This document shows positions 2,077-38,214 of a DNA stretch of 64,000 nt, one piece after another; the stretch's first letter is position 1, and every line of letters starts with the position of its first letter. The notes below the pieces were generated by a model that did not search any database, was not told the origin of the DNA, and saw nothing but the letters and a program-made list of their open reading frames with translations. This DNA comes from Dudresnaya verticillata (lineage: Eukaryota): NCBI GenBank assembly GCA_977862235.1, contig OZ374559.1:2356001-2420000 (forward strand). The letters are read 5' to 3'. The translations under genes were made by a program, and so were the position numbers.

Positions 2077-3146
2077 TCTAGCAACCACGCGGGCGCAACA
2101 GCGCGACGTGGCACAAATGCGGTTCCTGCTCGCTACAAACCAGAAAAGCGACGCCGAACAACAGCGCCAGGCGCGACGATGCGGAAGTTATGGCCACGGC
2201 GCCCACGCCGAGAACCTGCGGAGGGAAGAAGAAGCGCACCCGGTGCGAGTGTCGGCAGTGAGCTGTCGCAGCGCTTGAGGACGATGATGAAGCGGGCGCG
2301 CAAGAGTTGTGGCGGGTGCCGGTGCAAAAACACTTTGCGCAGACGCGGGTACACACCCTGATATACGCTCACGATTTTGGGAGCGCTGGCTCAGCGTGTG
2401 GGACTTCTCGACGACGGCGTCCCAGTCGCAACGTTGCGCTGCACTGGCTTTGGCCCGACAATTCTGGCGGAACGCCAATGCAAATTGGAAACTGTGGCAC
2501 CGAAATGGCTCAGACCTCGCGGGGCTCTCGGTCTTACGAGTGGGGCCGTGTGGCACAACGGCGATCTGCGCCAAGTGGGCGCTCGACGCTGTAAGTTGTA
2601 ACGGGCCAATGCCCTGTAAGGCGCTGGCATTGCTGGACTGCGCCATGATGCGACACGTGATTGGCGCCTGGCGCGAAATCATCTGCGCCTCAGACGCGCA
2701 ATTGGCGCCTGATCATTGGTGCGGCGTTGGGATATTTCCCGATTATACGCCGCCACAGGGGCGTAGATCCGCCTCCCTTGCTCAATGTAATTCGTGTACA
2801 GTACACTGTAGTAGTTAGTATTAGCACGGGCACAAGCCCTATTTATTGGTCCCCTGAATAGCAGGGAACCCCTGATTGAACCCCACGGGGAGTTTCTCGG
2901 TCTTGACCGTTTTCTGGATTCCGGGCGCTTCCGGTTCCCTTTTTGGACGCCAACTACAGGCTCGTCACCGTACGGCAGGTTCCCTGCGGAATACCGGGTC
3001 GCGTCCCCCTTTTCCTTTTCCTTTTTCCTGGCCTAGCGCCATTCTACCAAGCCTCTACCACACCCGAGCTACCTGTGAGCACGACGGTTCAGGACAGGTT
3101 TCCTTTGTTCTTTTTGCTCTTCCTGGGCTGGACCCGTTGTGCTACA
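2077..3146 (+). repeat. Probable 3' LTR of G0 (start approximate)
   Basis: TCTAGC (possibly a mutated TGTAGC) at 2077 follows GCGCTCACGC..GGCGGGG, resembling the G3 PPT context. Ends GCTACA. The partner LTR is not in the window. Confidence 0.4.
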
Positions 3147-3618
3147 CCTGGTGGCGCTTGGCTTCGACACGGGTCTCGACAAGCTCAGCGATTTGATTGG
3201 CTTGAGTCTGTCCTTTCGAAAGAACGGTTTGGAAATGGGCTGTACGCATAGAGAGAACTTCTTTAGCGCCACGAAGACCTTCTTCGATGAGCCCCAGAAG
3301 CCGGGACTGCTTGTCGACATCAGATTCCGCCCCGAGGAGCGAGAGAGCAGCCAGAGACTGCTCAATCCAGCACCCAGCGGAGTGAATATACTCCAGCTCT
3401 TTGGCATTACGGCGGTCCTTGCGGTGGGTCTCCAGGTAGAGGGTAGTCTAGGGCTTGAAGAAGCCCACCTCGTTAGGAAGAACGAGACTGGAGCGAGGCC
3501 ACAGGGCCCTACGGCCGACCATGCCAGAAGCAAGCTGATGATTGACAAGTTCAGCATAATCGCTGGGAATGGCGGGAGAGATTGAGATAGATGAAGAGGG
3601 AGGGGTTGGTTCAGTCAT
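3147..3618 (-). pseudogene. DIRS ORF1 (gag-like), truncated, with an internal TAG
   Basis: Manual translation MTEP..ALWPRSS..FFKP*TTLYLETHRKDRRNAKELEYIHSAG..AKEVLSMRTAHF aligns with ORF 62030-62629. Confidence 0.8.
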
Positions 3619-3878: not shown

Positions 3879-5731
3879 GGGTGCAACTAAGAGTCCCGAT
3901 TTGGAGCTGCAATTCAAACAGCGTACCCAAAAAGGGTGTGAGTTGTGGGACGCTCGGCCTATGCTCGCTACCCTTGGCATGTCTTTTCGGAAGTGTAAAG
4001 CGATTAGGACACCCTCTGAAAGTGCTGCACCATGAGGCGATATTCTCAGATCACGCTGCAATAGTACCAGACTTTCCTGAGACGATCTTCTCATAGTGAG
4101 ACACTTCGAACTATGTCACTCCCACCTCGTGAAGACTTTCTAAAGTGCATGAGCTGCTCCTCAGTCATTCCAACAGTTTGTTTGCCTCAACAAGCTTGTC
4201 ATTGAGATAACAAGCTTGCAGCTTTCTACATGAGCAGTCTGTACGAGTTTGTCGTTTTGTTGCATATCTACTCACTTTTAAGACCGCTATGACCACGCCC
4301 TTGGATTAATGGAGGGTAGCTCGTAAGCCTTGCCTGATGCTCTCCATACTGCTTCAACTTTAATTGACAGCGCAAACTCGATACCCATTATTGCTATTCG
4401 CAGGCCTAAACCTGAAGTGTCAATAGTCATTTCTTTGTCTCCCTCGTTCATTTCCAGGCCTGCGCAAGTGGAAGGAAATGGACAAAGGAAACCGCACTGT
4501 TCTGTTATACTTCAAATCTTATCAGCGAAGGGGCTACAAGGCACAAGGATCAGCAAGGCAGTCGATCAGATGATGGAACCTCCTTGAGGGACTGCAGGTT
4601 ATTCTTAGAGCAAAGTGTTGTACTACATAACTCATTCAATAATAATAATAATAATTGCTTGTGAGAATACAAATGTTGCACTTGTACTCGCGGCCACGAT
4701 GACAACCAGGAAGGTCTACGGTACAACAGGCGCGATAAAATAGAGGTTATCATTCCCATTCCTCCTCTGCACACGGTTTGATCCTCTTGTTTAGAGGATG
4801 GACTGGAAAGTGGATAAACTGCGAGTAGAATTATTAGGGACTGATCTGATAGGGTTCCTTGGAAGTGAAACAATTTTCGCTTCTCAAATTCGCTTGTCCG
4901 CAGGGCTTTGAACGAAGAGGCTCAAGAGTGTCTTTACGCATGACACCAGTGCCTAAACCGCCATTGAAGCCGCATTCAAACCCTGTTCGCTTCCAAACCA
5001 TGTGTTAACATAAACAGGCTGTACGGCCGTACCAGCTCCACAGCCATCTCCCGTTTCCCCCGACACTTCTATTTCTCTTTCCACTCTACTCTCAAAGTCC
5101 CGTTCGAGTTCGAATCAAGAAGATAAAGCAGGTCAGGCAAGTGGTACTGGTAAATGTGTTGGAATAGAATAGAAGCAAGCAAGCGTTACCATTATTTCAA
5201 TCTATGGATCGATCGTAGGAAGGGAAGTAAATGCCCAATCGCCACTAAACACTAAAAATAGCAGCAAGAAGAACGAGCCGGAACTGCAGTTCCGGTATTG
5301 TTAGATAGGGCGGTAGGTACTACACGTACCCTAAAAATACCGTTGAGAACCTGAAGTTTCCTTACTTCTTTTCATTCCACCCCCACAACGTACCAGTATG
5401 TTATACCACAGCGAAACACTGCATTTACGTCGTAGGATTGCCATTTGTTTCAGCCTACATTCTAAGAACGGCGCTGCTTTTAAATCCCGCATGCGTGTGC
5501 CTACGACATAAGAAAGAAGAAACTTTTGAAACAGAGCCACATCTATGTGTAACTATGATCAACTGAACTGAGCATGAGCAGGTGATACATTATCGTCTCT
5601 TTATCTTTGCTAGTTCAAACCCAGGCACTATCAAGACTTGTACTTCTCGAGACGTATTGCCTTGTGTACTATTGGTAGCAATGGTAGTATTGGTAGTATT
5701 GGTACTATTGACGTGGATCGACCTACGTGTT

Positions 5732-6145
5732 CTAACAATAGTAGATATACCAATAGCAGGAGCGGTAGCAATAGCACCGGTACGGAGAACAGATACACCT
5801 GTAGCGGCAGATAACACGCCTGCAAAGCCCACGAGATGTGGCCTGAAGCGACTGCTTCTCGTTCGCGGTAAGGCTACGAACAAGCTCCTCTTTCTTGTCG
5901 GCGCTTTCCTGAAGCATCCTGGCGGAGGTCTCCGTCTTGGAAATGAAACAGCAGGTCTTACCCAGAGATCCATCGGTCGACAACTCTGACTTGAAGACAT
6001 GGCAGTGGGAGTATCCGTCCTTGGCACATTCTTTGGCGGCCTTACCCTCGTCGTCGCCTTCATGGATTTTGCATGGGCAGTCGGGAGTGGCTGTGGCGAC
6101 AGCGAAGAGGGCGAGCAAGAGGGCGAGCAAGAAGAACTTGTTCAT
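5732..6145 (-). CDS. Secreted cysteine-rich peptide precursor, copy 1 (137 aa)
   Basis: Signal peptide MNKFFLLALLLALFAVATA, a 6-Cys domain, a charged linker ending TSR, and an 8-Cys core GLCRRVICRYRCICSPYRCYCYRSCYWYIYYC. The ORF is intact in three paralogs. Confidence 0.88.
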   Translation of the reverse strand: MNKFFLLALLLALFAVATATPDCPCKIHEGDDEGKAAKECAKDGYSHCHVFKSELSTDGSLGKTCCFISKTETSARMLQESADKKEELVRSLTANEKQSLQATSRGLCRRVICRYRCICSPYRCYCYRSCYWYIYYC

Positions 6146-6277
6146 GTTGAGAGGAGGTAGCGAACAACGGCTGTTGGTTGGTAGTGTTGGTGATGAGTGA
6201 ACAATGAAAAAATGAGCGTGCGAAGCTTGGTGCGTTTGAAAAGTGTTGAAACGCGTTCTACTGAGGTTGATGGGTCG

Positions 6278-6285
6278 TATATATA
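6278..6285 (-). promoter_or_regulatory. Putative TATA box of the peptide gene
   Basis: TATATATA ~133 bp upstream of the ATG; retained near 53165 and 63035. Confidence 0.45.
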
Positions 6286-7027
6286 CAGGTTTTGGTTTGT
6301 GGACTACTCAGAATAGGGACATTGGGATAGCGATAGAATATTGATAGCGGTTGCGATGCTGTTTCCTTATGGCACGGTTGGTATGCTATGAAGCGTTTGT
6401 AAGGCTTACAATGCGTATAATGCGTTCCCACGCGTGGTTCGACGTCTTGAGGTGATTTGGTGCTGGGCACTGGAGCTGCCTCATTACCAGCTCTGAAAAG
6501 TAAATGACAGTCTTTATAGATGTAAAGCCTTCATTCCTAACCGATGTCTTGATGAAATTAAAACTAAGAAAGACCATACACACGGTTGTTCTAAACAAAG
6601 AAAGGATAGACTTGATGGTCAATGGATAAGCAGAAGAAGGGTGGGAGGGAGGGGAAGAAAGGATAGACTTGCCGTCTCGTAGGGAGAGCGACCGGCGGTG
6701 GCTATATATACTGTAGCCACCATGTGGGGAGAGACCCCGAGTTGCACTTCGCAGATTATGTTTCCATTGCAAGAACAATATGAACTTTGATCTTCCGACG
6801 CGCGCATGCATCTGTTCTGTTGGAGTCCTTCTGATTCTGCTTGCGACGGATGACCCAGATTCGTTGCAATTGAGTCCAAACTGGGAACTCAGCCTCATGC
6901 TACTCGATCGGGGTTTCGGACGCTCAGCCGAGTTCGCTATTCCCCGTAGTCATTATCTTTTCATCAGCGTAAACCATTGACACCATATGAAAATCCCGTC
7001 TCGGAACCGTGCATGGCACGGGAGAGG

Positions 7028-8105
7028 CTACTGCGGGGGCGGGAACCGAGCTGTAGGGAGTAGTGACCAGAAGTAGTCCGAGATTTCCGGTGTAACCTCC
7101 AGGCGACCATCAAAGTAGACGTTAACCAGCATGCGGTCAGGACTCCACTGTCCACGAAAGTGAACAACAGGAATGGGGACCCCAAGCAGGATGAGAGCAG
7201 TAACGCTGCCGCTCTGTAGACTATGGGAAGAGTAAGAAGTAAAAGGGGGAGGCACAATCTGAAGTGCAGAGAGAATACTTTGCAGAGCAGCCGTCACGTG
7301 TTGCGCTCCAGGAGTATCTCCTGCAAATGACCAGTACAAGCGAGAAGGGGGAGCTCGTCGTTGCGCTTCGAAGTACTGTGCTTGAAGGGAGAGAGGGTTT
7401 ATGCCCCCGCTCCAGCACAGCGAAGACTCATAGCGGGAGCCCCCCGAACGGGACGCCCTTTCAGAGTTCGAGGCCGTGCAGTTATGCAGAGGATATCAGA
7501 GCTATATTCTTGTACTTCATGCCGTACATGGACATCTTGAACTTGAACGGTTCTCCCAGAAGCCTCGCGCCATGACATTAGGTACTGAAATTCAATGAGT
7601 GCAGCGTCCCTTTCCTCTCGCGTTCCCGTTGCTTGCTGTAGCCCAAACTGGCGAATGTGAGCAGCAATATTTGCGGGTAGACCCGCGCGGACATCGCGAT
7701 ATGCACCTCGAGCGTCATCCTGTCGCCGAAAGGCACGAATGAGGTCTTGCAGAGCTTGACCTGCACAAGGATCGGGAAGCTCTGCACGTGCATGTGTTGT
7801 CCTAATGGCGGATAGGTAGTGGTCCAAGGACTGGCCGTGGATACGATTCTCTTCAAACAAATGTCGTACATAGGCCAAGACTGTCCCTCGAGACGCTGGG
7901 AGTGAACGATGTCCTTCATCCATGCAAAAAGTGGTAAACTTTCGCCACTGACTTGACTTCGACTGCACAGTACTCTGGCTCAGTGCATGAGCAGCCAGTC
8001 TTATACTGGACGATCCACCCCTAGTGCGAGGGACGCGATCTCGGATGGCAGACTGGATCGCGAGAGAGGCCGTCGGCCGACTTCGGCTATCTCGATTGCC
8101 CATTG
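7028..8105 (-). pseudogene. Tyrosine recombinase of D1 (frameshift ~7400; HSLR mutated to HSLQ)
   Basis: SQWRKFTTFC..LPAS..YLSAIRTTH N-domain, MSWRE (catalytic R), HSLQSG, RGQW, VNVYF (catalytic Y). Confidence 0.88.
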
Positions 8106-10034
8106 TGGATTGACGGACGCGGAGTCGAATAGGGAGCCGTGTCCGGGATGTATCACGCGGGAGGTTAGACAAAGCCGTTGTAGTAGCTTGTACCAAGACG
8201 TCCCGGTCCAGTGTGGCACTAGAATGACCCCGTGTGCTTCCTCTGCTTCGATTTTCAAGAGCGTGAACGCGATGAGCTGAGGTGGGGGGTTCCAAAAACG
8301 ACTCAGTCCGTCCCCCCAATACTCCTGGAACTGTGCGCGTATGACCTTCGAGCGGGCCGCGGGGGCCTCCTTGAGTGGCCAGAAGCGCCGAACGAGCTGT
8401 AACTTGAGAGAGACTTCTAATGAGTGAAGTAACGAAGGGGTTGCGGCTAGATCCCGGCTGTCCCATGTGCGGCTCAGGCGGTCCGCGTGACGGTTCAAGG
8501 CGGACGGGATCCAAACCGCCTTGAGAGTCACCTTCATTTCCCGTAGGAGGTTGTGCAGGAGGCGTAGCTCTGACATGAGTTCGGGGCTGGAAGAAACCAT
8601 ATTGTTGACGATATGGAACACGGACATATTGTCTACATGTAACCTGATCCTCCCTTGATGTCCTTGGAGCCGCGCGTGAACCAAGTCCTCTTCCAGTGTC
8701 CGCCGTGCGGCCACGAGCTCCCTGTAGTTGATAGATTTCAACCTTAGGAAGGGGGACCACACCTGTCGCACATGCACGTCGCCATCCGCTCCAGCCGACA
8801 AGTCCCTCCCAAGGGTGCCACCAAATCCAATGTCCGAGGCATCCATGTGGAGGTTCCAGGATTCCTGGCCCCCGTAAATAAGACGCCCATCGCCCACCAA
8901 CATCTCGCTCCAGGCCTTTAGATCTCTTAGGCCAGAATTGCTCAGACGAATTTTGCAGGATGGATATCTTCCAATGCGACGACGGTCCTGTAGTAGATCG
9001 TTGTATAAACCTCGAGTGAAGAAACGCGCCAGCGGAATTGGGGTTAGCTGCGAAACAGCCTTCCCTGTGAAAGTCCGGACTAGGGACTCCCGTACCCAGC
9101 GCTTGGACTTCGCAGCAGTAGTGAGGAGGGCTTTGGAAAAGTCCCGGAGCTTTCCAATCTTTTGGTCCGTAACGAAATATCTGAATTGCTCTGTGTCTAT
9201 GACCACCCCCAGATGTTCTAGGCAAGTAGTACCTCGGCCCCAGACTCCTTTGTCTGGATGTCTTAGTAGTCCAAGCTTGAGAAATAACGAATCTAAGACC
9301 TCGCATAGCTCCATGCAATCCATTTGGGTGCTTGGCGAGGTTCCAACACCAGGGACCAGTAGATAGTCGTCGATCCATGTTAACACACGGCAGTTTAAAG
9401 CAGACCTGATGTATCTGGTTAACGGGGCCAGCAGATGGCAAAACCAAAAAGGGGACCGTGTCCACCCGAAGGGAAGGGCAATACATCTGTAGAACTTGCC
9501 CTGATATCGAAATATAAACCAGTTCCACATCCGACTGTGCAGAACAAAATGGCGATACCCCTCTTTCCAGTCGAAGGAAAGCATATGGTCCCCAACCAGC
9601 AGGCAAGCCCCAAAGGCGGAAAGCGTCTCCATAAGCACTGACTTTTTGCACCAGTGGGTTGACTGCTTCTTTAAATTGATAATAAAGCGCCCCTTTCCTT
9701 GACTCCAGTCCACGAATGCTGAAGATACGTAGTTGCCTTTCGCCACTTGCTGCAGGGCGTAATCCTTTGTTATCGCCTGATACACTCCGGCGGCACAGCC
9801 TTCCTCTAGGTCCTTCGCAGCGAATTCTTTGTCGGCCGCATTCTGGGGAATCTCCGGAAGCATGACACCTTCTGTAAAGGGAACATCCGGGGGATCCCAG
9901 ATTCCAAAGCATAAGCAACGTATTATGTACGCCGATGCCCCGATGGTACGCCAAGCCTCGGCATTTCTCCTTGTGAATGCCCATCTGGCGTGACGCCAAG
10001 TAGGTGGTCGGTGTGGTTCCGTGCTGTTCATCAC
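8001..10034 (-). CDS. DIRS pol: reverse transcriptase, RNase H and methyltransferase-like domain (677 aa)
   Basis: GRFIINLK, SFDWKEGYRH, ALPFGWTRSP, WIDD, HMDASDIGFGG, INYRELVA, VDN, NRHADRLSR, WNPPP, ILVPHW. Confidence 0.92.
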   Translation of the reverse strand: MMNSTEPHRPPTWRHARWAFTRRNAEAWRTIGASAYIIRCLCFGIWDPPDVPFTEGVMLPEIPQNAADKEFAAKDLEEGCAAGVYQAITKDYALQQVAKGNYVSSAFVDWSQGKGRFIINLKKQSTHWCKKSVLMETLSAFGACLLVGDHMLSFDWKEGYRHFVLHSRMWNWFIFRYQGKFYRCIALPFGWTRSPFWFCHLLAPLTRYIRSALNCRVLTWIDDYLLVPGVGTSPSTQMDCMELCEVLDSLFLKLGLLRHPDKGVWGRGTTCLEHLGVVIDTEQFRYFVTDQKIGKLRDFSKALLTTAAKSKRWVRESLVRTFTGKAVSQLTPIPLARFFTRGLYNDLLQDRRRIGRYPSCKIRLSNSGLRDLKAWSEMLVGDGRLIYGGQESWNLHMDASDIGFGGTLGRDLSAGADGDVHVRQVWSPFLRLKSINYRELVAARRTLEEDLVHARLQGHQGRIRLHVDNMSVFHIVNNMVSSSPELMSELRLLHNLLREMKVTLKAVWIPSALNRHADRLSRTWDSRDLAATPSLLHSLEVSLKLQLVRRFWPLKEAPAARSKVIRAQFQEYWGDGLSRFWNPPPQLIAFTLLKIEAEEAHGVILVPHWTGTSWYKLLQRLCLTSRVIHPGHGSLFDSASVNPQWAIEIAEVGRRPLSRSSLPSEIASLALGVDRPV

Positions 10035-10590
10035 TTCTTCGCGCCGCCCGCCTTGGGCGCATCGCGATCCTTTTCTGCGGACGGGTTGCTGTTGCCTGCC
10101 TTAGCAATACTCTTGGCAGCCTCAACAACGTACTTGTTAGATAGCTCTTTATATACGGAGGCATACATTTCGGATTGGACCTGCGCATGTTTTGCCTCAA
10201 CTTTGGTTTCCACGAGTTCTGCAATCTGTCTAGCCATAGCAGGACCTTTTGGTGAGCACGGCGTAAAAATGGGAGGTACGCATAGCCAATACTTCCTTGC
10301 TGGCCAAGAGAGAGTCATACAGGATCTGTAGCATCCTTCCTTGCTCGGCAGCGTCTCCAGAATCCTTGAATAAGTCAAATGCACAAAGACCCTGCTGAAT
10401 CCAGGTCCCCGCACTGTGTATATACTCCAATTATTTTCCATTTCTCCTATCCTTCCGGATAGTGTCCCGATAGAGATTTGTATCGGGCTTAAAGTAGCTC
10501 GGCTGGTGCGGCTGCACGAGTTCAGCGCAAGGCCACATAACTGAACGACCAGCAAGACTGCTGGCAAGAAGATGGTTGATGACCTTGCTG
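10031..10590 (-). pseudogene. D1 ORF1 (gag-like), frameshifted and 5'-truncated
   Basis: YFKPDTNLYRDTIRKDRRNGK*LEYIHSAG..KEVLAMRTSHF / KGPAMARQIAELVETKV aligns with D3 ORF1. Confidence 0.85.
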
Positions 10591-10837
10591 TCATGGGATC
10601 GCTGCTTGTGTGAAGAAGCCACCCACAAAATTGCGCGACCTAGCATCATCCAGAAGCTGTGTATCAAACCACCCACAAACTGCTCGACCTAGCATCAGCC
10701 AGAAGCTGGGGTGCAACTAAGAGTCCCGATTTGGAGCTGCAATTCAAACAGCGTACCCAAAAAGGGTGTGAGTTGTGGGACGCTCGGCCTATGCTCGCTA
10801 CCCTTGGCATGTCTTTTCAGAAGTGTAAAGCGATTAG

Positions 10838-11601
10838 TGTGGTGCAACGGCAAGGGGGCCGCCGAAAGGAAGCAAATCGACGGGCCAACTGTACGATCGG
10901 CCCAACCAAACGAAGACAGCTGGCCAATGAAGTCGCGCCGTCGGCGCGCGGACGGCGGTGAGCGCGCGCAGGTATGATACGTGGCCACCAGCTGTACACG
11001 TGGCTCACACGTGGCCACCTACGACACTGAAGCGCACCACGTGTCCTGCTGTACACGTATGATCCGGTTCTCGGTCAGACGCAAATGGAAATTGGATTTG
11101 GCCGCAAGGTGAATCAAAGGGAAGACAGTGGAAAAATCAAGGGAAAATCTAACTCATTTGGCCAACCACTAACGAACAAGTACTTGGTTTAGTCTGGTAA
11201 GGGTACAACATTGGCCCGACGCCGGAACACAAGTAGATATTTATGGCCGACCTGAGTAACCTAGGCCACTAACTGTAGAATAGCTCTAGATTAGCTCAGA
11301 TGGCCGATTTTGAGCCTACTTAGCTGGCCACACACTACGGCTAAGCCGAAAAAGGTACGAAGCCGTCCCGCCAGAGGTTGGGAGTACAGTTTTGCAACCT
11401 TTTCCCAACTTGGCCATTCTCCGTCCTCATCACGGATTCTGGCCACGACTTCGTCTGCGCGCTCCCGCTCTACCACGCTTGCTACCGGCGCGCAGGTCCG
11501 TTCTACGTTCTGGCCAGTTTTGGTTGAATCCGACAGGTCTTTGTGGTCTTCTTGGGGTCTCGTTGGGCTGCCGTACGCGGCGGTGCCTCAGAGATACTAC
11601 A
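10838..11601 (+). repeat. G1 5' LTR
   Basis: Direct repeat of 23394-24157; 2 mismatches seen. Confidence 0.97.
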
Positions 11602-11602
11602 C

Positions 11603-11615
11603 TGGTCTCCCGACC
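11603..11615 (+). promoter_or_regulatory. Primer-binding site TGGTCTCCCGACC (tRNA-Tyr-like, inferred)
   Basis: TGG 1 nt after the LTR; identical in G3. The complement ..GGGAGACCA resembles the yeast tRNA-Tyr 3' end. Confidence 0.8.
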
Positions 11616-12078
11616 TAGAAGATCAGTTGTGATTCCGGCCGTATTGCTCCGTTAGAAGACTCGAGTAGCTGGCCGTAGTCGACGACGGCCAGTTTCTTCC
11701 TCGCTACTGTGGTGGCCAAACCCCGCAAGTTGCAGATTGCGGGTTAGTAACTACCCGGTTCCGCAATCTGATTGTCAGTTTACTTCAACCCGTTTCTCTG
11801 GCCACAGTCTAGGTCACAGGCCAGATACCCGTCGCTTGGTTCGTTCCCAGGTTGGCTACTTTGCACACTCGCTGGTTCGTTCCCAGCACAGGGAGCTTTG
11901 CACACGGCAGTGTCCGGCCCTTGGTATAGGGACTATTAGCTCGGAATCGTCCGTTCCCACCCCTGTGTTTTGCACACGACAGTGTGGTTCCCAGGAAGGC
12001 CACTTTGCACACGTCGGCCACGGGGTGGCCACGAATCGCTAGAAGTATCTGGCCAATCAGTCTCCGACGTACTTCGTC

Positions 12079-14418
12079 ATGTCTTCTTCTTCTTCACAGG
12101 CAGGCGGACAACCGCAGTCCTTACAAGACTCGGCTCCGCCTCCCTCCACGTTGGGCGCTCCCATAGGCCCACCCCCTGCTCCTGGCCTGTATCCACCGTT
12201 ATCGGGGCCAACACCAGCTCCTCCGGTCCCGTTATCGACTGGCCAGTTCATTCCTCCGACAGTTGGACGAGCAGGCTCGGCTTCCACAGCAGGCGCCGTC
12301 CGTAATGAGGCACTGCCGCGGACAGCCCCACCGGTCTCGCCATGGCGCACGCCACCGGCGGCCACAGCGCCACCGATGACTCCGCTGGCCGCTCCTGCCA
12401 ATCTTCGGCCGCCTCCGGTTGACGATGATTCCCAGCCAGAACATGATGTCTGGTTGGGCCGGCAAGAGTTCTACCAGTATAAGCGTCGTACGGCCGATTG
12501 GCAACAAGAGGTGAAGAACCAGTTTGGCGAGATGCAAGTCAAAATGTCCACCACGGCTCTGATTAGGGACCAGCAGCTTCGCCAGGAGATACACTCCGTC
12601 ATCCTATACGGTGCACTTACGGCCATAGCAGAACGTTATGATGAGCGTCTGGAAAAGGTGGAGAAGGCCGTTTTCTCTTCCGACGGGAAGGGGAAACTCC
12701 CCGCTCCTCCTGGCCAGACAAGGTCCGAGTCCGCTCGGATAACACCGGCCAACCTACCAGTCTTGGCACCGCAGGTGGGTGAACCGGTAGCAGCAGTGCA
12801 GAAGCAACTGGATAAGTTGCAAGATGAGATAACGGCCTTGTCGCATCCTGACAAGGCTCGGCCCAATATTCCTGAAGAAGGGGTACCACCGCAAGAGGGC
12901 AACACTCAGAACAGTGGTGCCGCCCCACGGCCTGCTTTAGTTGGACCTTCGGGGCCAGTTGATGCAGGGGAACCTTCCATGGGATACACTGGCCAGTTGG
13001 ATGAAACAGGTCTTCCTGTCGCGATGATGGGGCCAATGGAACCAGGTCTAGAGCCTCTCAAGACCCTCCAAGAACCCTTCCGGCGGGTGGTCGACTACCG
13101 AACCCACCGCCTGTTCGATACTCGGCCAAAGATGACTATGGAGGATGCGCGGCGCTTGTCCCGGATGACTCGCCAAATCCGGAACTTGTTCCCGCAGATG
13201 AACCCATTTGATGGCCGACGTCCGATCGAGCTCCTGTCCTTCCTCAAGGAGTTCAAGGATGCGTGTGATGGGACAAACGTCCATGAAGGGGCCGCTTTGC
13301 GTCTTCTGGACTTCTTTACGGCCGGTAATGCGAAGAGGTTCTATTCTGGCCGGATGTCCCGTGGTATAAGGTCAGTACACTCCATCTTTCCGATGAGTGG
13401 ATTTTCACAAATCAGCTGGCCACACTTAGTCCACGCTCTCATCAAGCGCTACTGTACCGAAGATGTTCTGGCCGCTGCGTTCGACAAAGTGGCCAGGAGC
13501 AAACACAAAGATACAGAGAACGAAGCGGAATTCGCTGACCGGTTGGGGGATGCGGCGCTGTCGTGCGCCCATGTCTTCTCGGAGAACACCCTGATCAACC
13601 ATTATGTGAGCGGTTTACCTTCGACCACTCGTTCGGCCGTAGCTGAGAAGCTTATGCAGATGCGGCAGGAGGAGAAGGACTTCTCGACGGTGCGCCGAAT
13701 CGCCATCGCCGAGGGGGAGACACACAGAGCCTACTTGGCTTCTGCACGTCCCAAAACAAGGTCGGCCAGTTCTCGAAGTGCGTTGGTCATCCCTACCCTT
13801 GCGGCCGAACCTGCTTGGCAGGCGGAGCCCGAGGATATAGCGGCCAACTATGATGATCCGTTTGACACCATACCGGTTATGGCCATTACTTCTGGCCAGA
13901 ATGGTGCTCAGCAAACACCGACAATGACGCCGACCACGCCGTCACCGGCAGGGTCGGTGTCCGGGGGTAATACCCCGGACCCACTCCGGAAACCTCTGAC
14001 GTTAACGTCGGATGAGCTGGCCAAAGTCGCTATTATGCTACGCAGTGACAAAACCAGTGCCCGTTGTTGGGGTTGTCGCGAATGGGGCCATGATTTGTAC
14101 ACTTGTGTGTACCTACCATTGGCCATCAGGAACTTGTTTGCCATACGTAACTTCCGCTTCCGAGATGAATTCGCTAGATGGCACCCCGAACAGTTTGCTG
14201 GCCGAGGTGGTCGAGGTTATCGCCCCGACCAAAGGAATGCCTCCTTTGGGGATGGAAAGGGACGCCCTCCCCCTCAGGGAATACTCCGACGGCCACAACA
14301 ATCATCTTCGAACCGTAGGAATCGGCAGGCCACGTTAGTCACTACGCAAGAACATCCATTGGATGAGGTGGTGGCCGACGTGGAGTCCGATAATTCTTCG
14401 TTGGCATCGGGAAACTAG
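12079..14418 (+). CDS. gag: G1 Gag (779 aa)
   Basis: Follows the PBS; FDGRRPIELLSFL capsid-like region; zinc knuckle CWGCREWGHDLYTC. Confidence 0.88.
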   Translation: MSSSSSQAGGQPQSLQDSAPPPSTLGAPIGPPPAPGLYPPLSGPTPAPPVPLSTGQFIPPTVGRAGSASTAGAVRNEALPRTAPPVSPWRTPPAATAPPMTPLAAPANLRPPPVDDDSQPEHDVWLGRQEFYQYKRRTADWQQEVKNQFGEMQVKMSTTALIRDQQLRQEIHSVILYGALTAIAERYDERLEKVEKAVFSSDGKGKLPAPPGQTRSESARITPANLPVLAPQVGEPVAAVQKQLDKLQDEITALSHPDKARPNIPEEGVPPQEGNTQNSGAAPRPALVGPSGPVDAGEPSMGYTGQLDETGLPVAMMGPMEPGLEPLKTLQEPFRRVVDYRTHRLFDTRPKMTMEDARRLSRMTRQIRNLFPQMNPFDGRRPIELLSFLKEFKDACDGTNVHEGAALRLLDFFTAGNAKRFYSGRMSRGIRSVHSIFPMSGFSQISWPHLVHALIKRYCTEDVLAAAFDKVARSKHKDTENEAEFADRLGDAALSCAHVFSENTLINHYVSGLPSTTRSAVAEKLMQMRQEEKDFSTVRRIAIAEGETHRAYLASARPKTRSASSRSALVIPTLAAEPAWQAEPEDIAANYDDPFDTIPVMAITSGQNGAQQTPTMTPTTPSPAGSVSGGNTPDPLRKPLTLTSDELAKVAIMLRSDKTSARCWGCREWGHDLYTCVYLPLAIRNLFAIRNFRFRDEFARWHPEQFAGRGGRGYRPDQRNASFGDGKGRPPPQGILRRPQQSSSNRRNRQATLVTTQEHPLDEVVADVESDNSSLASGN
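14409..14415 (+). promoter_or_regulatory. -1 ribosomal frameshift slippery site G GGA AAC
   Basis: Directly before the gag TAG; the protease ORF is open in the -1 frame. The same heptamer occurs at 40496-40502 in G3. Confidence 0.75.
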
Positions 14419-17400
14419 CCGGGCCGAGATCTTCGATCGTGATCCCGTTGCCCGTACACGTCCCAAAACCGGCTAGTCTCGTTTCCATTAAGTTCTTCCC
14501 TTTTAGTCACCTCCATTTTTCTTCTTTGTTAGCCATTGCATGGCGTTTGGCAACGCCAATCCAGGTTTGGTCAACCGATGATTTGACCTACCACTGCCCA
14601 TTTTCATCTAACGGTCTGGTGTGGTCACCGCCCTTGAGGTCTGGCCATACTACATCATCACCCACCCCCATAGACAATGGGGGTTCCTTGCCAAAGAGTG
14701 GCCGCAAATCATCGAACGACGAACAGAAAGAAGAATCCCAACTGGCCAGTGTTTCATCACAAGGTATGGTCTGCATCCTGGGTGGGGCCAACTATACCCT
14801 TTCGGGTTCATTTGGCCTCACAATGACTGCCTTGTTACCCGGGCCAATTGTCTTAGACACGTGCTCGGGTTGGAACATCATCCGGTTGGATGCGTTGCCT
14901 CCCAATTGGAAGGACAACGCACTTGAGTTGACGTCCCCGCCTCTTCTGGGGGACGCCAACCAACGGCCAATTCAGTTTCTTGGGGCCGTTTCCTTGGTCG
15001 TGCGCTTGGGCCGTCATTCATATCGAGTGCCGTTCCTTATCGCCGACCTTCGCTTTGCAGTACCCGTTTTGTTGGGTACGGCATTCTTGAACACGCACGT
15101 GGATAGCATCCAGTGCCGTGGTCAAACCGTGCACTTAGTGCGCCGAGATATCCTTCCGCTGCTTCCTGATAGCACTTCGATGGCTCTGGGGGCAGAGCCA
15201 ACCGCTGCGAAGGGGGCCCCGCCTCCGGGTAATTCCAATCCGGCCAGTACGGAGCGCAAGACACAGCGACACTACGCGGCCACTGTACGCTTGACGAAAG
15301 GTCTAACCATACGGGCAGGCCAACAGGCCACCGTGTCTGTTCGCAGTGATGGCCGAGGATTATGTGTGTTGGAGCCCAAACATTCTTTGAGCTTCCGGCA
15401 CCATACGCGGATGGCCAATGGAGTTGCCGAGGTTCGGCCGCAGAAACCATTCCAGGTAATGCTGGCCAACTGGGGAAGAAAGGATGTCTTACTGCCAAAG
15501 GGTACCGTGGTCGGCTATGCTGTCCGCCACCCCATGGCAATCTTGACGCCACACCGACGGAGTGTGGAGAATATGGCCAGTGTACTTGGGCTGACTCCAC
15601 TTGTGGATCAGGATAGTAGTCAAGTAGAAGTAGAAGAATCTGGCCAAGAGAGAGTTGAGCCTTCGAAACCAAAGGTACCTAGACAAGAGGCACAAGAATG
15701 GCAGGATAAGATCAAGCTTGATCATATCCCGGACAAGAAACAACGCGAAAGGATAATGGCCATTCTAGAGAAACAGTGCAATGTGGGACGGTTCCCTGGG
15801 ACAGATCATGACCACCGAGCATCGGATAGACTTGGAAGATGGAACCCGGCCAATAAGAGCGATGCCCTACCGACAAGGGCCAGCGTTACGCGCGATCGCA
15901 GAGGCCGATATTAAGAAGCAGTTGGAGGCCGGAGTGATAGAGCCATCGCACGGAGAATGGGCCTCGCCAATTTTGATGGTGCCGAAGAAGGATGGCACCC
16001 TCCGCTTCTGTGTCGACTATCGCCGGCTCAATGCGAAGACAGTTTGTGACGCATACCCGCTCCCGCGCATGGACGATTGTATAGACTCCCTTGGGGATGC
16101 GGCCGTGTTTTCAACCTTGGACTGCAACTCCGGATATTGGCAAATACCAGTGGCCGAAGAGGACAAGGATAAGACGGCCTTCACCTCACACCTGGGGACA
16201 TTCAGGTACAATCGAATGCCGTTTGGCTTGAAGAACGCACCGGCCACATTTCAGCGTGCGCTTGACATAGTTCTCTCTGGCGTCCGATGGCAGATCTGCC
16301 TCATCTACCTGGACGATGTCATTGTGTTCTCCAAGAATGTGGAGGATCATCTTGGCCATCTAGACGAGGTACTAACCTTGTTGAAGGCGACCGGCATTGC
16401 GTTGAAGTTGAAGAAGTGTTCCTTCTTTCAGGCCAAAGTAGATTATTTGGGCCATGTAGTGACCCCCGGAAAACTAAGTATGGCCATGCAGGGTACCAAG
16501 GCAATACAAGAGGCCGAGTTTCCAGGGTCCCTTACGGAACTCCGGTCTTTCTTGGGAGCTTGCAATGTCTACCGAAGGTTTGTGGCCAAATAATCCATGA
16601 TCGCGAGGCCACTTACGCGCATGTTGTGCAAGGATGCCGAGCCAGACTTCGAACGGCCAACAGAGGAACAACGTCATAGCTTCGAGAAGCTGAAGGCTGC
16701 TCTCGTCTCGCCGCCGATTCTGGCCTTACCTAGATACGGCCGGCCATATGTGATCGAGACTGATGCCAGCGCATACCAGATTGGATGCGTCCTGCTCCAA
16801 GAACAAGAGGATGAGTCGTACCATCCCGTAGGATATTGGTCTCGTTCCCTGACGTCGGCCGAGAAAAACTATTCGGCCACTGAGCGCGAGTGTTTGTCTG
16901 TGGTGTGGGCCATTACATCATTACGGCCATATGTTGAAGGTACCAAGTTCACAGTCCGTACGGACCATGATGCCCTCCGCCGGTTGATGTCGCTCACTGA
17001 TTCATCTGGCCGTCTTACAAGATGGAGATTACGTCTGGCCGAGTTCGACTTTGTGATTGAGTATAAACCGGGGCGTAAGAACCAAGTTCCCGATGCCTTG
17101 TCCCGCTTGGTGGCCCCGCAAGAGCGCGGAGATGCACGGCCAATAGATGATACTGTACCTGTATTGGACGGTACCCCCTCTATTCTCACGACCACGCGGT
17201 CCCGGAGACATCGAGAAATTAATAAGGCCGACAGGAGAGAACGGGACAATGATGTCGACGCATGGAAGGAGGAACATTTGATGGCCGATTATACAGACTA
17301 TGGCCGAGCGGAAGTCTTCAGTCGTGCACAAATGGAAGGGAAGACAGCAGAGACTCTTCCAACACCAGTAACACAGACTGAAATAATAGAGGTCCAGAAA

Positions 17401-18846
17401 AGCGACGACTTCTGCCAGACCATTCTCGCCACGAGAGCTGGACTGGCACGATCCAAGAAGCCCCTCTTCTTCGAAGGGATTGAGGGAGTCCTCTATAGAC
17501 GATGTCCGACAGACGGCCGAAAACAAATAGTGCTTCCAGCTTCGTTGCATGGCCGGATTCTTCGGTTGTGCCATCATGCCGTTCTGGCAGGTCACCCTGG
17601 CCAGAATAGAATGTATCGGACCCTTCGACGGAGATACTATTGGCCGCACATGGCCGCTGATTGCTTAGCAACAGTTCGGAACTGTGGCCATTGCGAGAAG
17701 AACCGGATTCATCGCCTACGACATACATCGAAGTTACAGCTGTTCCCGGCCAGTCAACCATTAGAGAGTGTGGCCATGGATCTTCTCGGGCCACTCCCCA
17801 GGACGAAGAAGGGGTTCGAACACATATTAGTCATCACGTGCTGCTTCTCGAAGTTGACTCAGGTGGTGCCTCTGACGAAGATAACCGCCAATAATGTGGC
17901 CACGGCGTTCTGCGTTCACTGGATTTTCAAGTATGGCGCACCAAAGACAGTTCTCACTGATAACGGTGGGCAGTTTGCGGCCAAGTTTTTCCAGGCCGTC
18001 TGCCGACAATTACAGGTGGCCAACATCTTCACAACCACATACCACCCACAAACAAACGGCCAGGTGGAAAGGTACAATCGAACACTGGTCGCAATGCTGA
18101 GAAGCTACGTGAATGAACATCAGACCGACTGGGATGAATACGCTGCGGCATTGACGTATGCTTATAATTGCCATATACATCGCTCGACTGGAACCACGCC
18201 GTTTGACTTGGTTCTCAGTCGGCCGCCGAGCCCATTCTCACTTGAGGCTACGTTAAACCGGCCAAAGCCAACAGGGACTGTGAAGGAAGCGTTTTTGCGC
18301 CGATTGTCAGAGGCCGTGGATAAAGCTTCGGCCAGTTTAACTCGCACACAAGCGCGCTACAAGAAGGACTTTGACCGCTCGGTGAGAACGGGGAATAAGA
18401 TGCTGGCCGCTGGAGGGTTTGTCTTCTTAGACAATCCAGAAAAGCAGCCAAAGAAACTAGAGCATCATGCCCAGGGGCCATACAAAATTATAAGCAATGA
18501 CGGCCGTACGTTCGTCATCGACAGAGCTGGCCAACTAGAGCGTGTTAGCTCGGACCGAGTAGTAGCCGCACCCAGGCCACAGGGGCAACCGATGGCTAAG
18601 GAGACAATGGCCAGCGCCGCATTGGGAACCCTTCCGGAAGGAGTCGCTGCGTCGGCCGAGGAGTATGTCATTGACAAGCTCACGGACATGCGTGAGGATT
18701 CAACTGGCCAGCGGTGGTTTCAGGTCAAGTGGTATGGGTATAATGGCCGAACGTGGGAACCCGAGGCTCTTTTGCCGGCCACGTTGGTGTCTCGCTTCTT
18801 CGCGCGCATGAAGCGCCGAGCTACGCCGGGCCAAAATAGTTCGTAA
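14415..18846 (+). pseudogene. pol: G1 Pol (PR-RT-RH-IN-chromodomain), with a frameshift ~15775 and TAA at 16591
   Basis: LDTCSG protease, YLDD, ETDASAY, HHCC zinc finger, TDNG..NGQVER integrase, VKWYGY..TWEP chromodomain. Confidence 0.95.
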
Positions 18847-19767
18847 GTTCAACATCGAAATGGCCAGGGAAGTCAAGCGAGAAGAGTCAGAGTCTGGCCA
18901 AAAACTTGTGAAGACGGAGATGCGTGGTGATTGTAGATGGGGGGGAGAGAAGGAGATGCTGGGTGACAAAATACCCCGGCTGGAACCCCACCACCAAAAA
19001 CACGACGGCGGTGTTTAGGGTTAACCCAGAATAATGTAAGCTGGCCAATCATGTGTGAGAAAGTTGTGGCCAGCAAATCTCCCGGTGCACGCCAAAATTC
19101 AGTGGGTGTAAATGGACGGTAGAAACTACCTCATCTTTTGCTACCTTTTTCGGGCAACTCTAATTCCCACATATCGTGCTCCCAAGCGGGGGGCTTGCGC
19201 AGAGTGAGGGGACAGGGGAAGCGACGATAACCCCTACCGACAACAAGAAGAAAATTGGCCCAGAGAAGAAGACATGGCCAGATGAGAAGCTTGAGGCTGA
19301 TGAGACGAAGACAATAGCTGGCCATTGCTCTTCCTACTGCGCCTTGAAGAAGGTAGCCTCACACCAAGACCATTCCACCACCACTCGCACTGGCCATTTT
19401 TGTGCTTTGACTTAACCACTAACTCCCTTGACCCCGTTTTTCCAGCTGTGCTCATGAGCATTGGCCAGGAGCAAGACTTACGACCCGAACTAACAAAGGT
19501 CCTACAGCCCCATTGACTAACAACTGGTCATGATAACACACAAAGTTTTTGAAGGTAACCAGTGCACTTTAACTCAAGACTGGCCGGACAGACTCATTAA
19601 CTCCCAAGAACAAGGGGAGCTGTCCAACCTTAAGACGCACTAACTTGGCCACCAACTTTTGATAACGCAAACACAAGACATAGGAAATCACAAGACTAAC
19701 AACAACTCATTGGCCAGCATAAGAGCACAAGACGAGCTGGCCAACTACTAACCCAAGACCTTGACAA

Positions 19768-22700
19768 CTAACGGCCATAGGGACTTGGCGAGCGAGGAGA
19801 ACCCGAAGCATAGGGCTCCCTGCTCCTCGACTGCGAAGGCGCACGAGGCGCTGTCGCGGGAACACGAGGGGCCGCCGCAGGAACGGTTGGCGGCGTCACA
19901 AAAGGCGAAGTGGCCGGCAGAGATAAGCTTCCAGGAACCTGGCCAGGCTGAGCAAAATTGGCCACAGGAGTCGGCGGAGCCGACACAGTCGGACGAGTTG
20001 GCTCTGGTTGATAATCGGCCGGTCGAGACGGCGCACGTGGATGACTGCTGATATCTCCAGCGTGAGATGGCGTGGGGGTTGTGGCCAGTGCCACTGAGAC
20101 CCCAGGATATGGCGGCATGCCCGGCGCAGGCGTAGGCAAGGAAGACAGAGGAAACTGAGGCATCTGGCCAAAGACGGAGGGCGCATAAGCTGCGCGCAAA
20201 CTGGCCAGCTGATGAAATCCACGATTGCGCTCCATGTCAAGTAAGGCCTGTTGATTGTGCGTCTCATCGCACCAGCGATCGCGCTGTCTCTTCCACTCAA
20301 GACCCTGCTCGTTAGATCTGGCCAACGTCTCCTTTGTGGCCTGCAACTCGGCCTCGACTTGGTCTTTCTACCTTCTAACATTGGCCAGCCGCTCTTGGCC
20401 CCGCCTGATCACTTCTTCCATTTCATCAACATGACGACGAACGCGGTTGAGCTCTTCGGACTGGCCACGCTTCATATCGCTGAGACGGCCAAGGCTCTGA
20501 TCCAGCTGCCGCAAGACGTTGGCCAAAGACATTTGGTTAACATGGCCACGTACAGAGAGTTCGGCCACCACATGCGGATGAGGATGTAAGATAGCGGGCC
20601 GCACGATGGAAGCGTCGTTGGCCACATCAACTCCAAAGCTGCTACCATGGCGAAAAGTCACTTGCTTGTTCCAGTCGAAACCGCAATACTTCTCATCATG
20701 GCCCGCTCGACGTTGGAACAAATGGTCGCGTTGTAGCACTGTATCGGCCAGCTTCTCGTACAACGATACAACATCTGGCCAATATACGTGGTTGAACTGA
20801 TGCTGGTGCTCCGGGCTGACGGGAAGATAAGTAAGGCCTTTCACCACTTCAATCCGCCGAGCAATGGCCTGCGGAGTCATCCACCACATTCTCTTCGACG
20901 CTTGCGCTTCGTAGCGGAAGAAGATGCTGGCCATTATGTGCAACTCTATGACAGCGGTCTCTTGGAAGCACTCAACCCAAGAGGGGTCGAGCGCATGACG
21001 ACGATACTGGCCAACAAAATAATAAGCCAGTGGGCTGAGCAGACAAGCTTCACCCTTCGATGGCCACTCCTTCCAAAGAAAAGCGGGGACGCTAGGGAAG
21101 TATTCAACTGATGGCCAAAACCCTTCCTGGCCACGAGTGTTGCCATGGTAGACATAGCTACCACCCGTGCGATGGGCCAGTCAATCTCCCGGTGCTATGA
21201 TGCGACGAAGGTCGGTACTGGCCATTTTCGCGTTTCGCACGGTTGTCTGCTCCCAGCGCTCAAGCATCCACGCGTGAGGGAAGGCGTAATACCAGGTGGA
21301 AGTGTGAGGATACACGCTAGACTTGCCCTTGAACATCAGCCAAGCCCCGTGGACGAACATCACGTCCTGCGCGCACAACAAAAAGGCACGATCGCACTCA
21401 ATCTCCAGAGGGATCCAATAGAGATGGCCATTATCGTGCGACTCGCGATACTGATGCCACACCTCGTTGAGAGGGCAATGGCTTTCCCGCACGCGAATCA
21501 TGTCCAGCTTGTCACTATTGGCCACCAACTCGGTATAAGGAATATCTACCCGAGGAAGCTTTGGCCAGATGGAAGTCCCAGGAAGTCGTTCGTCCAAAAC
21601 TAACTCAGGGCCATCATGATCTTCTAGCCCCGGTGGGACGTCAGCACGGAAAGGTACAGCAGCACGAGTGTGCGAAGCTGGTTCACAGTCCCGATGCATC
21701 GGAGCAGAAGGGCCAGCACTTGAACTTGGAATACCCTGGCCAGTCTTCGTGATATCTAAGGTTTCTTCGCGCGGAGTAACTTCCTTAGCGCGGGGATCTT
21801 CAACCTGGCCAGATGACTTGGGCTGCACGCCTACAGAAGGCGTAGAAGAAGTCTGGCCAGTTTTAAGCTCATCGGCGTCGGGGAGCAAGGCCACAAAGCG
21901 ACGACGATCGCCGTCTGACATAAGATTGGCCGGCGGGATTGGTGTAGAAGCATCGACGTCAATAACTTCCTCACGAGATGACTGGCCAGCTTCCTTAGGC
22001 GGCAGCCGCTGCTTCTTCGAGGGAGGTCCCTGAATAACGGGCTTACCGATGTTTAACTTGGCCAGTTCACGCGAACGACTCGCAGCCGTCGGCATGAAAG
22101 GCGAAGGCGCCGAGCGTAGTCGCGGCGTGGATTTCCTCGAAGCGCTTGGAGTGGCCGAACGCGACGATTTGCGTGGCACAGGAATGTTGGCCAAAGCTTC
22201 TGCAGCCTTCTGCCCCAACTTGTCTCCTTTCTTCTGTTCTGGCCCAACCTTCTCAACACTTCCAGGTAACTCCTGCTTGCTGGCCAATACTTCTTCTCGA
22301 GCGGGCACAAATACCATGGCCGAGTCGACGACCTCGGGTTGAACCGCAGCTACTTCTTCAGCTGCTGCTGTAGTAGCTTTAGTAACCAAAGGACGATAGA
22401 TGGCAATAACAGCCTTCTCAATGGCACTGGCCAATGGAGGTGGAGTAGGATTAATGGCCGTTGGCACCGAAGTGCTTGCGGCCGGCACTGACTTCTTCGC
22501 TTCGAGACGCTTCACCTCGGCCTGTACCAACCCTTTCTCAGGCGCTTCTGCTGTCTTCTGGCCAGTTTTCTTCGTCTCCTGGGCTAGCGGGCCGACGGTA
22601 GAAGATGCTGTCGGCTTACCCTTTTTGAGTTGACCTGTTGCCACCGCTGCCTCTTCTGATGAAGATGATGCAACGATGGTCACACTGCACACCACCTTGG

Positions 22701-23160
22701 CCTTCTGCGCATCCGCAAGTTTCTTCTTCAAACTGGCCAGTTGTTGTTCCTCAGCTTCGCGTCTCTTCTGACTGGCCTCTATCTCCTTCATCAACTTGTC
22801 GGTGCCAACGTCGGGCGTACCTTGCACCATGGCCGGAGTTGCGGAAGCAGCAACACTCTTCTTCTGGCCAGTTGTGATGGGCTTCTCCACCGCGGCCACC
22901 TTCGCGGCAACCAACGGATCATTAGTTGCACGGCTTGGAGTCTTGGGCGCCGGGGCGGAAGATGCCCTGGGCGCCTTCATCGCACGCGGCCTCGAACTCT
23001 GGCCGGTCTTCTTGGTGGTCGCCTTCGCTTTGGCCGTCACAACTTCTTCATCGCTTGACGGCGGCGTAGAAGATGAGCTTGAAGAAATGGTCGGCCGTAC
23101 AGTCTTCTTCTTGACCGATGCAGTGCGGCGCGGACGCGCTTTCGTAGGGCCACCCGCCAT
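19768..23160 (-). pseudogene. G1 antisense accessory ORF, ~1130 codons, with two in-frame stops (21181, 20368)
   Basis: ORFs 21181-23160, 20368-20943 and 19768-20346 are one frame when TGA and TAG are read through (checked by hand). Layout: K/S/A/P-rich N-terminus, W/Y-rich domain, coiled coil, P-rich tail. Confidence 0.8.
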
Positions 23161-23393
23161 CAAGAGCGAACTGGCCAGACACGCAAGTCGGGAGTAAGGG
23201 AAGGCGCGCGCAAGTTGGCAAGAAGCGCGGGCGTGTGCACGATATGTTGGGAAGTGTTGGTAAGGGGAAGCGCGATGCGGGTTGAAATGGGGATGGCCGG
23301 ATGCAGGGAGAGGGGTGTCGGCGCGGATCACGCGCGCTGATATGGCCAGATGAAACCCTCGCGGCCAGGAGTCCGCGCTTGCGAAGGGGGCTC

Positions 23394-24157
23394 TGTGGTG
23401 CAACGGCAAGGGGGCCGCCGAAAGGAAGCAAATCGACGGGCCAACTGTACGATCGGCCCAACCAAACGAAGACAGCTGGCCAATGAAGTCGCGCCGTCGG
23501 CGCGCGGACGGCGGTGAGCGCGCGCAGGTATGATACGTGGCCACCAGCTGTACACGTGGCTCACACGTGGCCACCTACGACACTGAAGCGCACCACGTGT
23601 CCTGCTGTACACGTATGATCCGGTTCTCGGTCAGACGCAAATGGAAATTGGATTTGGCCGCAAGGTGAATCAAAGGGAAGACAGTGGAAAAATCAAGGGA
23701 AAATCTAACTCATTTGGCCAACCACTAACGAACAAGTACTTGGTTTAGTCTGGTAAGGGTACAACATTGGCCCGACGCCGGAACACAAGTAGATATTTAT
23801 GGCCGACCTGAGTAACCTCGGCCACTAACTGTAGAATAGCTCTAGATTAGCTCAGATGGCCGATTTTGAGCCTACTTAGCTGGCCACACACTACGGCTAA
23901 GCCGAAAAAGGTACGAAGCCGTCCCGCCAGAGGTTGGGAGTACAGTTTTGCAACCTTTTCCCAACTTGGCCATTCTCCGTCCTCATCACGGATTCTGGCC
24001 ACGACTTCGTCTGCGCGCTCCCGCTCTACCACGCTTGCTACCGGCGCGCAGGTCCGTTCTACTTTCTGGCCAGTTTTGGTTGAATCCGACAGGTCTTTGT
24101 GGTCTTCTTGGGGTCTCGTTGGGCTGCCGTACGCGGCGGTGCCTCAGAGATACTACA
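23394..24157 (+). repeat. G1 3' LTR (PPT GAAGGGGG just upstream)
   Basis: Direct repeat of 10838-11601. Confidence 0.97.
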
Positions 24158-29740: not shown

Positions 29741-29743
29741 GGT

Positions 29744-33230: not shown

Positions 33231-33268
33231 GTGCCCCAGAGCTCCTGTACAGGAGTAACAGTGAGCTT

Positions 33269-37356: not shown

Positions 37357-37361
37357 GTCCT

Positions 37362-38147: not shown

Positions 38148-38148
38148 C

Positions 38149-38161: not shown

Positions 38162-38214
38162 TAGAAGTCGTCGAGACTCAAGTACTTCTCGCATCGACGC
38201 GATCGCAGTAAAGG

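Follow-up and report, generated by a model that had tools for sequence, protein, structure and literature searches.

Likely secreted cysteine-rich precursors ending in a predicted disulfide-laddered β-hairpin, encoded in a eukaryotic transposon nest

Three related precursor genes in a transposon nest

We analysed a 64-kb stretch of eukaryotic DNA (the window) that encodes three intact copies of a small cysteine-rich precursor (Table 1). A tblastn search of the window with the copy A protein returned copies B and C as the sole other significant matches. Gaps of ~46.5 kb and ~4.8 kb filled by nested transposons lie between the copies today, and when these insertions are cut out the three genes fall head-to-tail in units that are 94.5–98% identical. 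The preliminary description had called the genes a tandem family, which holds for the three related intact copies and their ancestral head-to-tail order but not for their present spacing; because nested transposons now separate the copies, we use "tandem" for the ancestral array only. In a tree of the three copies and three outside relatives described below, copies A, B and C form one well-supported clade (97/99). A candidate TATATA box accompanies each gene, and the box of copy C now lies far from its gene because a DIRS-like insertion separates the two. Two further open reading frames overlapping copy A (5590–6063, minus strand; 5681–5989, plus strand) were taken as shadows of its coding sequence, and a bacterial promoter scan was set aside as irrelevant to eukaryotic DNA. 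Directly past the stop codon, and matching the 3′ ends of copies B and C too, is an imperfect 9-nt repeat of the ATACTACCA type, which differs by one unit between copies.

Table 1. Features of the precursor genes and of the surrounding transposons (positions in the window)
Feature	Position	Strand	Description
Copy A	5732–6145	minus	intact single-ORF precursor, 137 aa; coordinates and translation checked
Copy A likely signal peptide (~residues 1–20)	6086–6145	minus	hydropathy; model helix 4–15; putative cleavage site
Copy A N-terminal six-Cys domain (residues 21–66)	5948–6085	minus	acidic; predicted strand-helix-strand-strand
Copy A linker (residues 67–105, 39 aa)	5831–5947	minus	invariant KEE (85–87) and invariant R105; likely processing site, putative cleavage
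Copy A core (residues 106–137)	5735–5830	minus	8 Cys, net +6, 9 aromatics; predicted β-hairpin 107–119/124–136
Duplicated unit, part common to all three copies	4678–6293 (copy A coordinates)	minus	80/1605 ungapped columns vary
Candidate TATA box TATATA, copy A	6280–6285	minus	putative; 140 nt upstream of start codon
9-nt repeat past copy A stop codon	5690–5730		imperfect
Copy B	52619–53032	minus	intact, 137 aa; 85% identity to A; TATATA retained 142 nt upstream of start codon
Copy C	57850–58266	minus	intact, 138 aa; 89% identity to A; extra Trp in turn
TATATA of copy C	63037–63042
DIRS-like element	58332–62967	minus	RT and tyrosine recombinase; ~66 nt upstream of copy C start codon
DIRS-like element	~6505–10837	minus	RT and tyrosine recombinase
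DIRS-like element	53366–56780	minus	RT and tyrosine recombinase
gag remnant	3145–3561
Ty3/Gypsy element	10838–24157		764-bp LTRs 99.7% identical; ATTAG target duplication
ORF in Ty3/Gypsy element, 659 aa	21181–23160	antisense to element	no confident Pfam family
ORF in Ty3/Gypsy element, 188 aa	20368–20934	antisense to element	no confident Pfam family
LTR element	32639–52012		GTAC target duplication; encloses the GC-rich element
GC-rich LTR element	37359–50628
ORF in GC-rich LTR element, 523 aa	47630–49201	antisense to element	no Pfam family
Element with inverted repeats	25105–32263		~490-bp terminal inverted repeats 91% alike; CAGTG duplication at flanks
WD40 gene fragment	27181–27957		intronless; one in-frame stop

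The window as a whole is a nest of eukaryotic transposons in which Pfam finds reverse transcriptase, RNase H and tyrosine recombinase domains. A GAAA(A) stretch precedes the insertion point of each of the three DIRS-like elements, none of which lies more than a few kb from a peptide gene; two of the three contain direct repeats of 276–332 bp, and the closest database relatives of their reverse transcriptase are 69% identical and unnamed. Several Ty3/Gypsy LTR elements are also present, including a very recent insertion that carries two antisense open reading frames besides gag-pol, and the GC-rich LTR element has one extra antisense frame of its own. The element with terminal inverted repeats, which holds the WD40 gene fragment among other open reading frames, looks like a putative gene-capturing DNA transposon, in which no transposase was found. 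Sequence comparison of the DIRS reverse transcriptase, of the WD40 fragment and of a Gypsy gag pointed to no host lineage; for the gag, the best three clusters carry no recorded taxa and lower-ranked ones are from Oomycota and Streptophyta.

Architecture of the precursor

The copy A reading frame, its coordinates and translation, the signal-peptide-like N-terminus, the Cys-rich domain, R105 and the core are all as first described. The N-terminus is hydrophobic, with an 11-residue Kyte–Doolittle mean of 3.2 from residue 6, and the domain that follows has its Cys residues at positions 23, 25, 40, 48, 65 and 66. In the core the eight Cys are spaced x4-x3-x1-x4-x1-x3-x6 within 32 residues, or 33 residues with a central x5 in copy C, and the inner CxC-x4-CxC spacing resembles that of protegrin-1. 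All six sequences of the family have a core net charge of +5 to +7 and 6–13 aromatic residues per core, and the six cores together contain one acidic residue. The linker had been described as charged and ending in R105. It is charged, and this arginine is invariant in 6/6 sequences, but the linker is near neutral overall (+1 to +2); acidity resides in the N-terminal domain, at −3 to −6, and the pro-region as a whole carries −2 to −4.

The boundary between linker and core is marked by a conserved (S/T)-S-R-(G/A)-(L/I)-C motif. A single Arg is the putative processing motif in 6/6 sequences, a dibasic site is absent, and the last core Cys directly precedes the stop codon, with no amidation signal. 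Linker length varies from 32 to 41 residues between Cys. Copy B departs most from this pattern: APPR stands ahead of its core, the family TSR having become PPR, and its core is the most divergent, with the RR pair changed to GG and the Tyr run replaced by charged residues while all Cys are retained. These three losses make copy B a candidate for altered function or altered processing.

A family with three distant relatives

A phmmer search of 1.84 billion representative sequences returned four matches at E ≤ 0.001, three of which are true relatives (P0004–P0006, E 1e-27 to 1e-21). These are unnamed singletons from sequencing-run assemblies and are 47–50% identical. The fourth (P0007, a 1586-aa fish protein, E 2.7e-4) was excluded from the alignment as a chance match. 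All six sequences align end to end and share an invariant GKTCC, KEE, R105, RCYCYR and terminal Cys. A profile search confined to subjects of 73–268 residues, with longer multi-domain forms outside its range, yielded only the three input relatives from 2527 candidates.

Searches against characterised families agreed with the earlier view that the family is an unrecognised one. No Pfam family was found for any of the six proteins at E up to 1 or 10, and a Gloverin match on the linker (E 0.03–0.06) was rejected as sub-threshold. A PDB sequence search gave chance matches only, a word-indexed search with the single protein found no relative among 73 candidates, and the ESM Atlas gave no usable match (recognition value 2126, under the 2300 mark). 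None of 521 and none of 150 stretches of JGI metagenome contigs was related, nor was any of 603 from viral contigs. Foldseek against the PDB found nothing at E ≤ 0.001. A VIA-align fold search reached a best Z of 2.7–3.0 and named no family, a result that is silent on the novelty of the fold because the search excludes chains of fewer than 30 residues and with them the protegrin, tachyplesin and theta-defensin structures. Literature searches on red algae or macroalgae turned up no such peptide family, and wider searches turned up no description, which supplementary gene and peptide tables and most subscription papers could still contain. We also considered an oomycete RXLR-EER reading of the RMLQ...KEE stretch and rejected it, since the stretch lies ~56 residues past the signal peptide, does not conform to RxLR and is missing from P0004–P0006. 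The alignment and these searches point to a real family of likely secreted Cys-rich precursors, undescribed in the libraries searched.

A predicted laddered hairpin behind a folded pro-domain

The hairpin proposed for the core was returned in both AlphaFold2 runs. Modelling the mature protein as a single sequence placed strands at residues 107–119 and 124–136 with pLDDT 90–94 over the last three blocks and low confidence for the remainder, and modelling with the six-row alignment gave an identical 13+13-residue hairpin at pLDDT ~70 and pTM 0.46. The predicted register sets C119 opposite C124, C117 opposite C126 and C113 opposite C130 on one face, and puts C108 and C137 on the opposite face with an offset of two residues. 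For eight Cys distributed randomly over 32 positions, the inner three pairs fall into one hairpin register with P = 0.008, and any three pairs into any one register with P = 0.17. A natural variant bears on the same pairing: in P0005, Tyr occupies both position 113 and position 130 and the remaining six core Cys are retained, so that one predicted pair is lost as a unit, a single event beside the Tyr run that would occur by chance 1 time in 7 if two of eight Cys were lost at random.

The preliminary description had proposed a mirror-symmetric inner spacing and a four-rung ladder. Symmetry extends to the second and seventh, third and sixth, and fourth and fifth Cys, all in the predicted register and one of these rungs lost pairwise in P0005, but not to the first and eighth, whose offset means that a fourth rung would require diagonal bonding, a bulge or a link between molecules. 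From these models a core with a three-rung laddered hairpin (C113–C130, C117–C126, C119–C124) is supported as a prediction, and a C108–C137 rung, reached by elimination, is plausible. Lys and Arg number two on one predicted face and two to four on the other and aromatic residues occupy both, and because charge and aromatics are spread in this way the core is not sharply amphipathic.

With the six-row alignment, AlphaFold2 predicts the strand-helix-strand-strand order of the N-terminal domain at pLDDT 70–78, and 18–26 of its 43–45 aligned residues are identical across distant members. P0004 is without both C23 and C48, in an alignment gapped near its position 23, and P0004 and P0005 both gain C27 and C53 together, which suggests pairs C23–C48 and C27–C53; P0006, with C53 but no C27, is a misfit to the second. 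In cysteine-stabilised αβ defensins, a helix CxxxC is bonded to a CxC of the last strand. The topology predicted for the N-terminal domain agrees with that of these defensins, but their signature is lacking in 6/6 sequences, where A36-x3-C40 sits in the helix and the adjacent C65–C66 in the last strand. Fold matches to the self-incompatibility ligand SP11 (Z 2.0, rmsd 2.9, 43 aligned) and to plant defensins, namely PsDef2 (Z 2.5, rmsd 3.5, 45 aligned) and AtD90, all fall within Z 2.0–2.5, which is background level.

Recent change focused on the core

Variable sites among the three paralogues are concentrated in the core, at 21/96 positions by ungapped columns (22/96 by a codon-based count) versus 17/315 in the rest of the coding sequence. 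The flanks vary at 8/287 and 31/756 sites on the 3′ side and 3/148 upstream, so that variation outside the core is ~4%, and none of 20000 permutations matched the variability of the 96-nt core window. These substitutions are overwhelmingly nonsynonymous, with 14 nonsynonymous and 0 synonymous between the cores of A and B, 9 and 2 between A and C, and 18 and 2 between B and C. With a null in which Cys and stops alone are protected, the A–B comparison gives P = 0.002–0.012 and a total of ≤2 synonymous among 22 changes gives P = 0.006–0.039, and a plain binomial gives P 0.04–0.05, all of these tests being made on three sequences and ~22 changes. The real copies keep all eight Cys, an outcome reached without a stop in 17 of 20000 trials of 22 random changes.

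Across distant relatives the core is the best-conserved region, with copies A and C matching P0004–P0006 at 19–26 of 32 positions, and the linker is identical at 5–11 of 22–31. The copy A core is closer to that of P0006 (26/32) than to that of its own paralogue B (22/32), even as the linkers of A and P0006 share 6/24 residues, which indicates that the fast change happened recently and chiefly in copy B. Our reading is of a peptide long under constraint, the young duplicates of which may be undergoing retuning. Gene conversion from unseen paralogues could mimic such fast core change, and the strong conservation of core and Tyr run across distant relatives would also fit a structural or binding role.

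Comparison with known hairpin peptides

Several classes of cationic hairpin peptides resemble the core. Tachyplesin, protegrin and gomesin are antimicrobial cationic disulfide-braced hairpins, and theta-defensins are cyclic primate 18-mers with six Cys and three disulfides, made by splicing together two nonapeptides that come from truncated alpha-defensin precursors (PMC10096437). Like theta-defensins (PMC10096437), the core would form a cationic two-stranded hairpin with parallel laddered disulfides, hairpin and register being predicted here; it differs in being, as encoded, a linear 32–33-mer with eight Cys (six in P0005) from an unrelated precursor, and none of the six proteins has a defensin or defensin-propeptide Pfam match. 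With tachyplesin, polyphemusin and gomesin it shares a cationic, aromatic-rich hairpin, which in our core is predicted, but those peptides have 17–18 residues, two disulfides and a C-terminal amide (PMC10096437), whereas the core is about twice as long with up to four disulfides and lacks an amidation signal. Protegrins offer the parallel of a cystine-bridged hairpin released from a folded pro-domain, a release that would have to occur here too; theirs are 16–18 residues with two disulfides (PMC10096437), and a cathelin pro-domain was detected here neither by Pfam (E up to 1 or 10) nor by PDB sequence match.

The precursor layout has its closest counterparts elsewhere. Polychaete BRICHOS-related peptides such as arenicin, alvinellacin, capitellacin and nicomicin are preceded by folded acidic pro-domains (PMC6265681) and have in common with the layout predicted for our precursors a signal peptide, a folded acidic pro-domain and a C-terminal cationic peptide that is often a hairpin (PMC6265681, PMC11767717). 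The polychaete precursors are longer, with 239 aa in nicomicin, contain BRICHOS and usually use a dibasic site (PMC6265681, PMC11767717), whereas ours have 137 aa, a single Arg and a 46-aa Cys-rich pro-domain for which no family was detected; Pfam finds no BRICHOS domain in the proregion, which totals 85 aa. A conserved prepro region followed by a hypervariable Cys-framed mature peptide is common to many antimicrobial peptides and neurotoxins, and the mussel MgCRP-I family carries the same evolutionary signature yet tested negative for antimicrobial, antifungal, insecticidal and cytotoxic activity (PMC4558851). MgCRP-I also shares recent duplications and an Arg at the cleavage site, putative in our family, and differs in its array of six Cys, a comparison by layout and not by sequence (PMC4558851). 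On this reading, the precursor is laid out like the BRICHOS and cathelin types and the peptide resembles the tachyplesin, protegrin and theta-defensin class without membership in it, given its length, Cys number, pro-domain, processing site and lack of amidation.

Discussion

We lean towards the view that these prepropeptides, likely cut after Arg105, deliver a cationic Tyr/Trp-rich laddered hairpin directed, at the surface of the host, against microbes or other organisms. After removal of the signal peptide, a monobasic protease would cut at (S/T)-S-R and free a peptide of 32–33 residues, in which a diagonal C108–C137 bond on the opposite face might clamp the ends of the hairpin. Together with the KEE motif, the acidic folded N-terminal domain could shield or chaperone an aggregation-prone cationic hairpin until release, comparable to BRICHOS and cathelin pro-domains. 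Once released, the peptide would bind anionic microbial surfaces through its Arg and aromatic residues, and new duplicates, copy B above all, may shift the target range. In favour of a defence role are the invariance of R105 despite a divergent linker, an architecture kept in 6/6 sequences, the charge of the core and a focused change of the core with its Cys kept. Against it are the greater conservation of the core over distance, the missing dibasic site and amidation, the only mildly acidic pro-region and a hairpin that is not sharply amphipathic. We do not grade the antimicrobial reading higher because charge segregates weakly between the faces and because the mussel MgCRP-I precedent was inactive.

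Among the alternatives, the one that survives best is a structural or adhesive extracellular peptide, in which the Tyr-rich hairpin would stack or cross-link through dityrosine, halogenation or intermolecular disulfides into a wall, cuticle or glue, with the pro-region keeping it soluble until secretion. We regard it as unlikely but deserving of weight, given that the core and Tyr run are the best-conserved part of the precursor, up to 13 aromatics fall within 32 residues on faces predicted not to be amphipathic, and the out-of-register C108 and C137 could bond between molecules. However, focused nonsynonymous change among young duplicates is unexpected of structural proteins, copy B has exchanged its Tyr run for charged residues with every Cys in place, and the product is a single short unit and no repeat protein. 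The same diversifying change around fixed Cys would fit a ligand as well as a weapon, and paralogue divergence could instead track a partner if the peptide were a recognition or signalling ligand, for example in gamete or self recognition, or an enzyme inhibitor. This we consider rather improbable: the weak alignments to plant defensins, SP11 and PsDef2 that would favour it score no better than background and involve the slowly changing N-terminal domain rather than the core, the Arg- and aromatic-rich composition of the core is closer to surface-binding hairpins, and no partner gene lies within the window.

Less probable again is an uncleaved two-domain secreted protein, whose hairpin would serve as an anchor, for instance to anionic polysaccharide, and whose N-terminal domain would be the working part. 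The predicted fold and conservation of that domain, the missing dibasic site, a linker strand predicted at 86–88 by the alignment-based model and several weak fold matches that span ~80–137 as one unit all agree with it, but an invariant Arg stands exactly at the domain boundary, linker length varies and selection targets the core. A non-functional or transposon-derived frame carried by segmental duplication is very improbable and already largely refuted, in spite of the mostly transposon surroundings and the low ESM Atlas value, by three intact copies, by relatives that retain and align over the whole architecture at 47–50% identity, by Cys retention far above chance and by the lack of any transposon domain in the frame.

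Returning to the defence reading, a bolder form of it, which we hold tentatively and with more doubt than belief, is that a eukaryote outside the animals, quite possibly a red seaweed, independently evolved a four-rung ladder defence peptide that exceeds the tachyplesin, protegrin and theta-defensin types in length and bracing, has its own folded pro-domain and is under positive selection in an array shattered by transposons. The red seaweed is a guess prompted by intron-poor genes, the mix of transposons in the window and a GC content of ~54%. If true, the family would be a sequence-unrelated addition to the few laddered-hairpin defence peptides, with a longer scaffold of up to four rungs and a new pro-domain. 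The six natural variants, including three-disulfide and Tyr-poor forms, provide a ready structure–activity series, and a 32-mer is easy to synthesise. In a structural role, the Tyr-rich laddered hairpin would instead represent an extracellular building block of a new type; and if the host is a seaweed, these precursors would be candidates for a gene-encoded peptide arm of immunity in algae.
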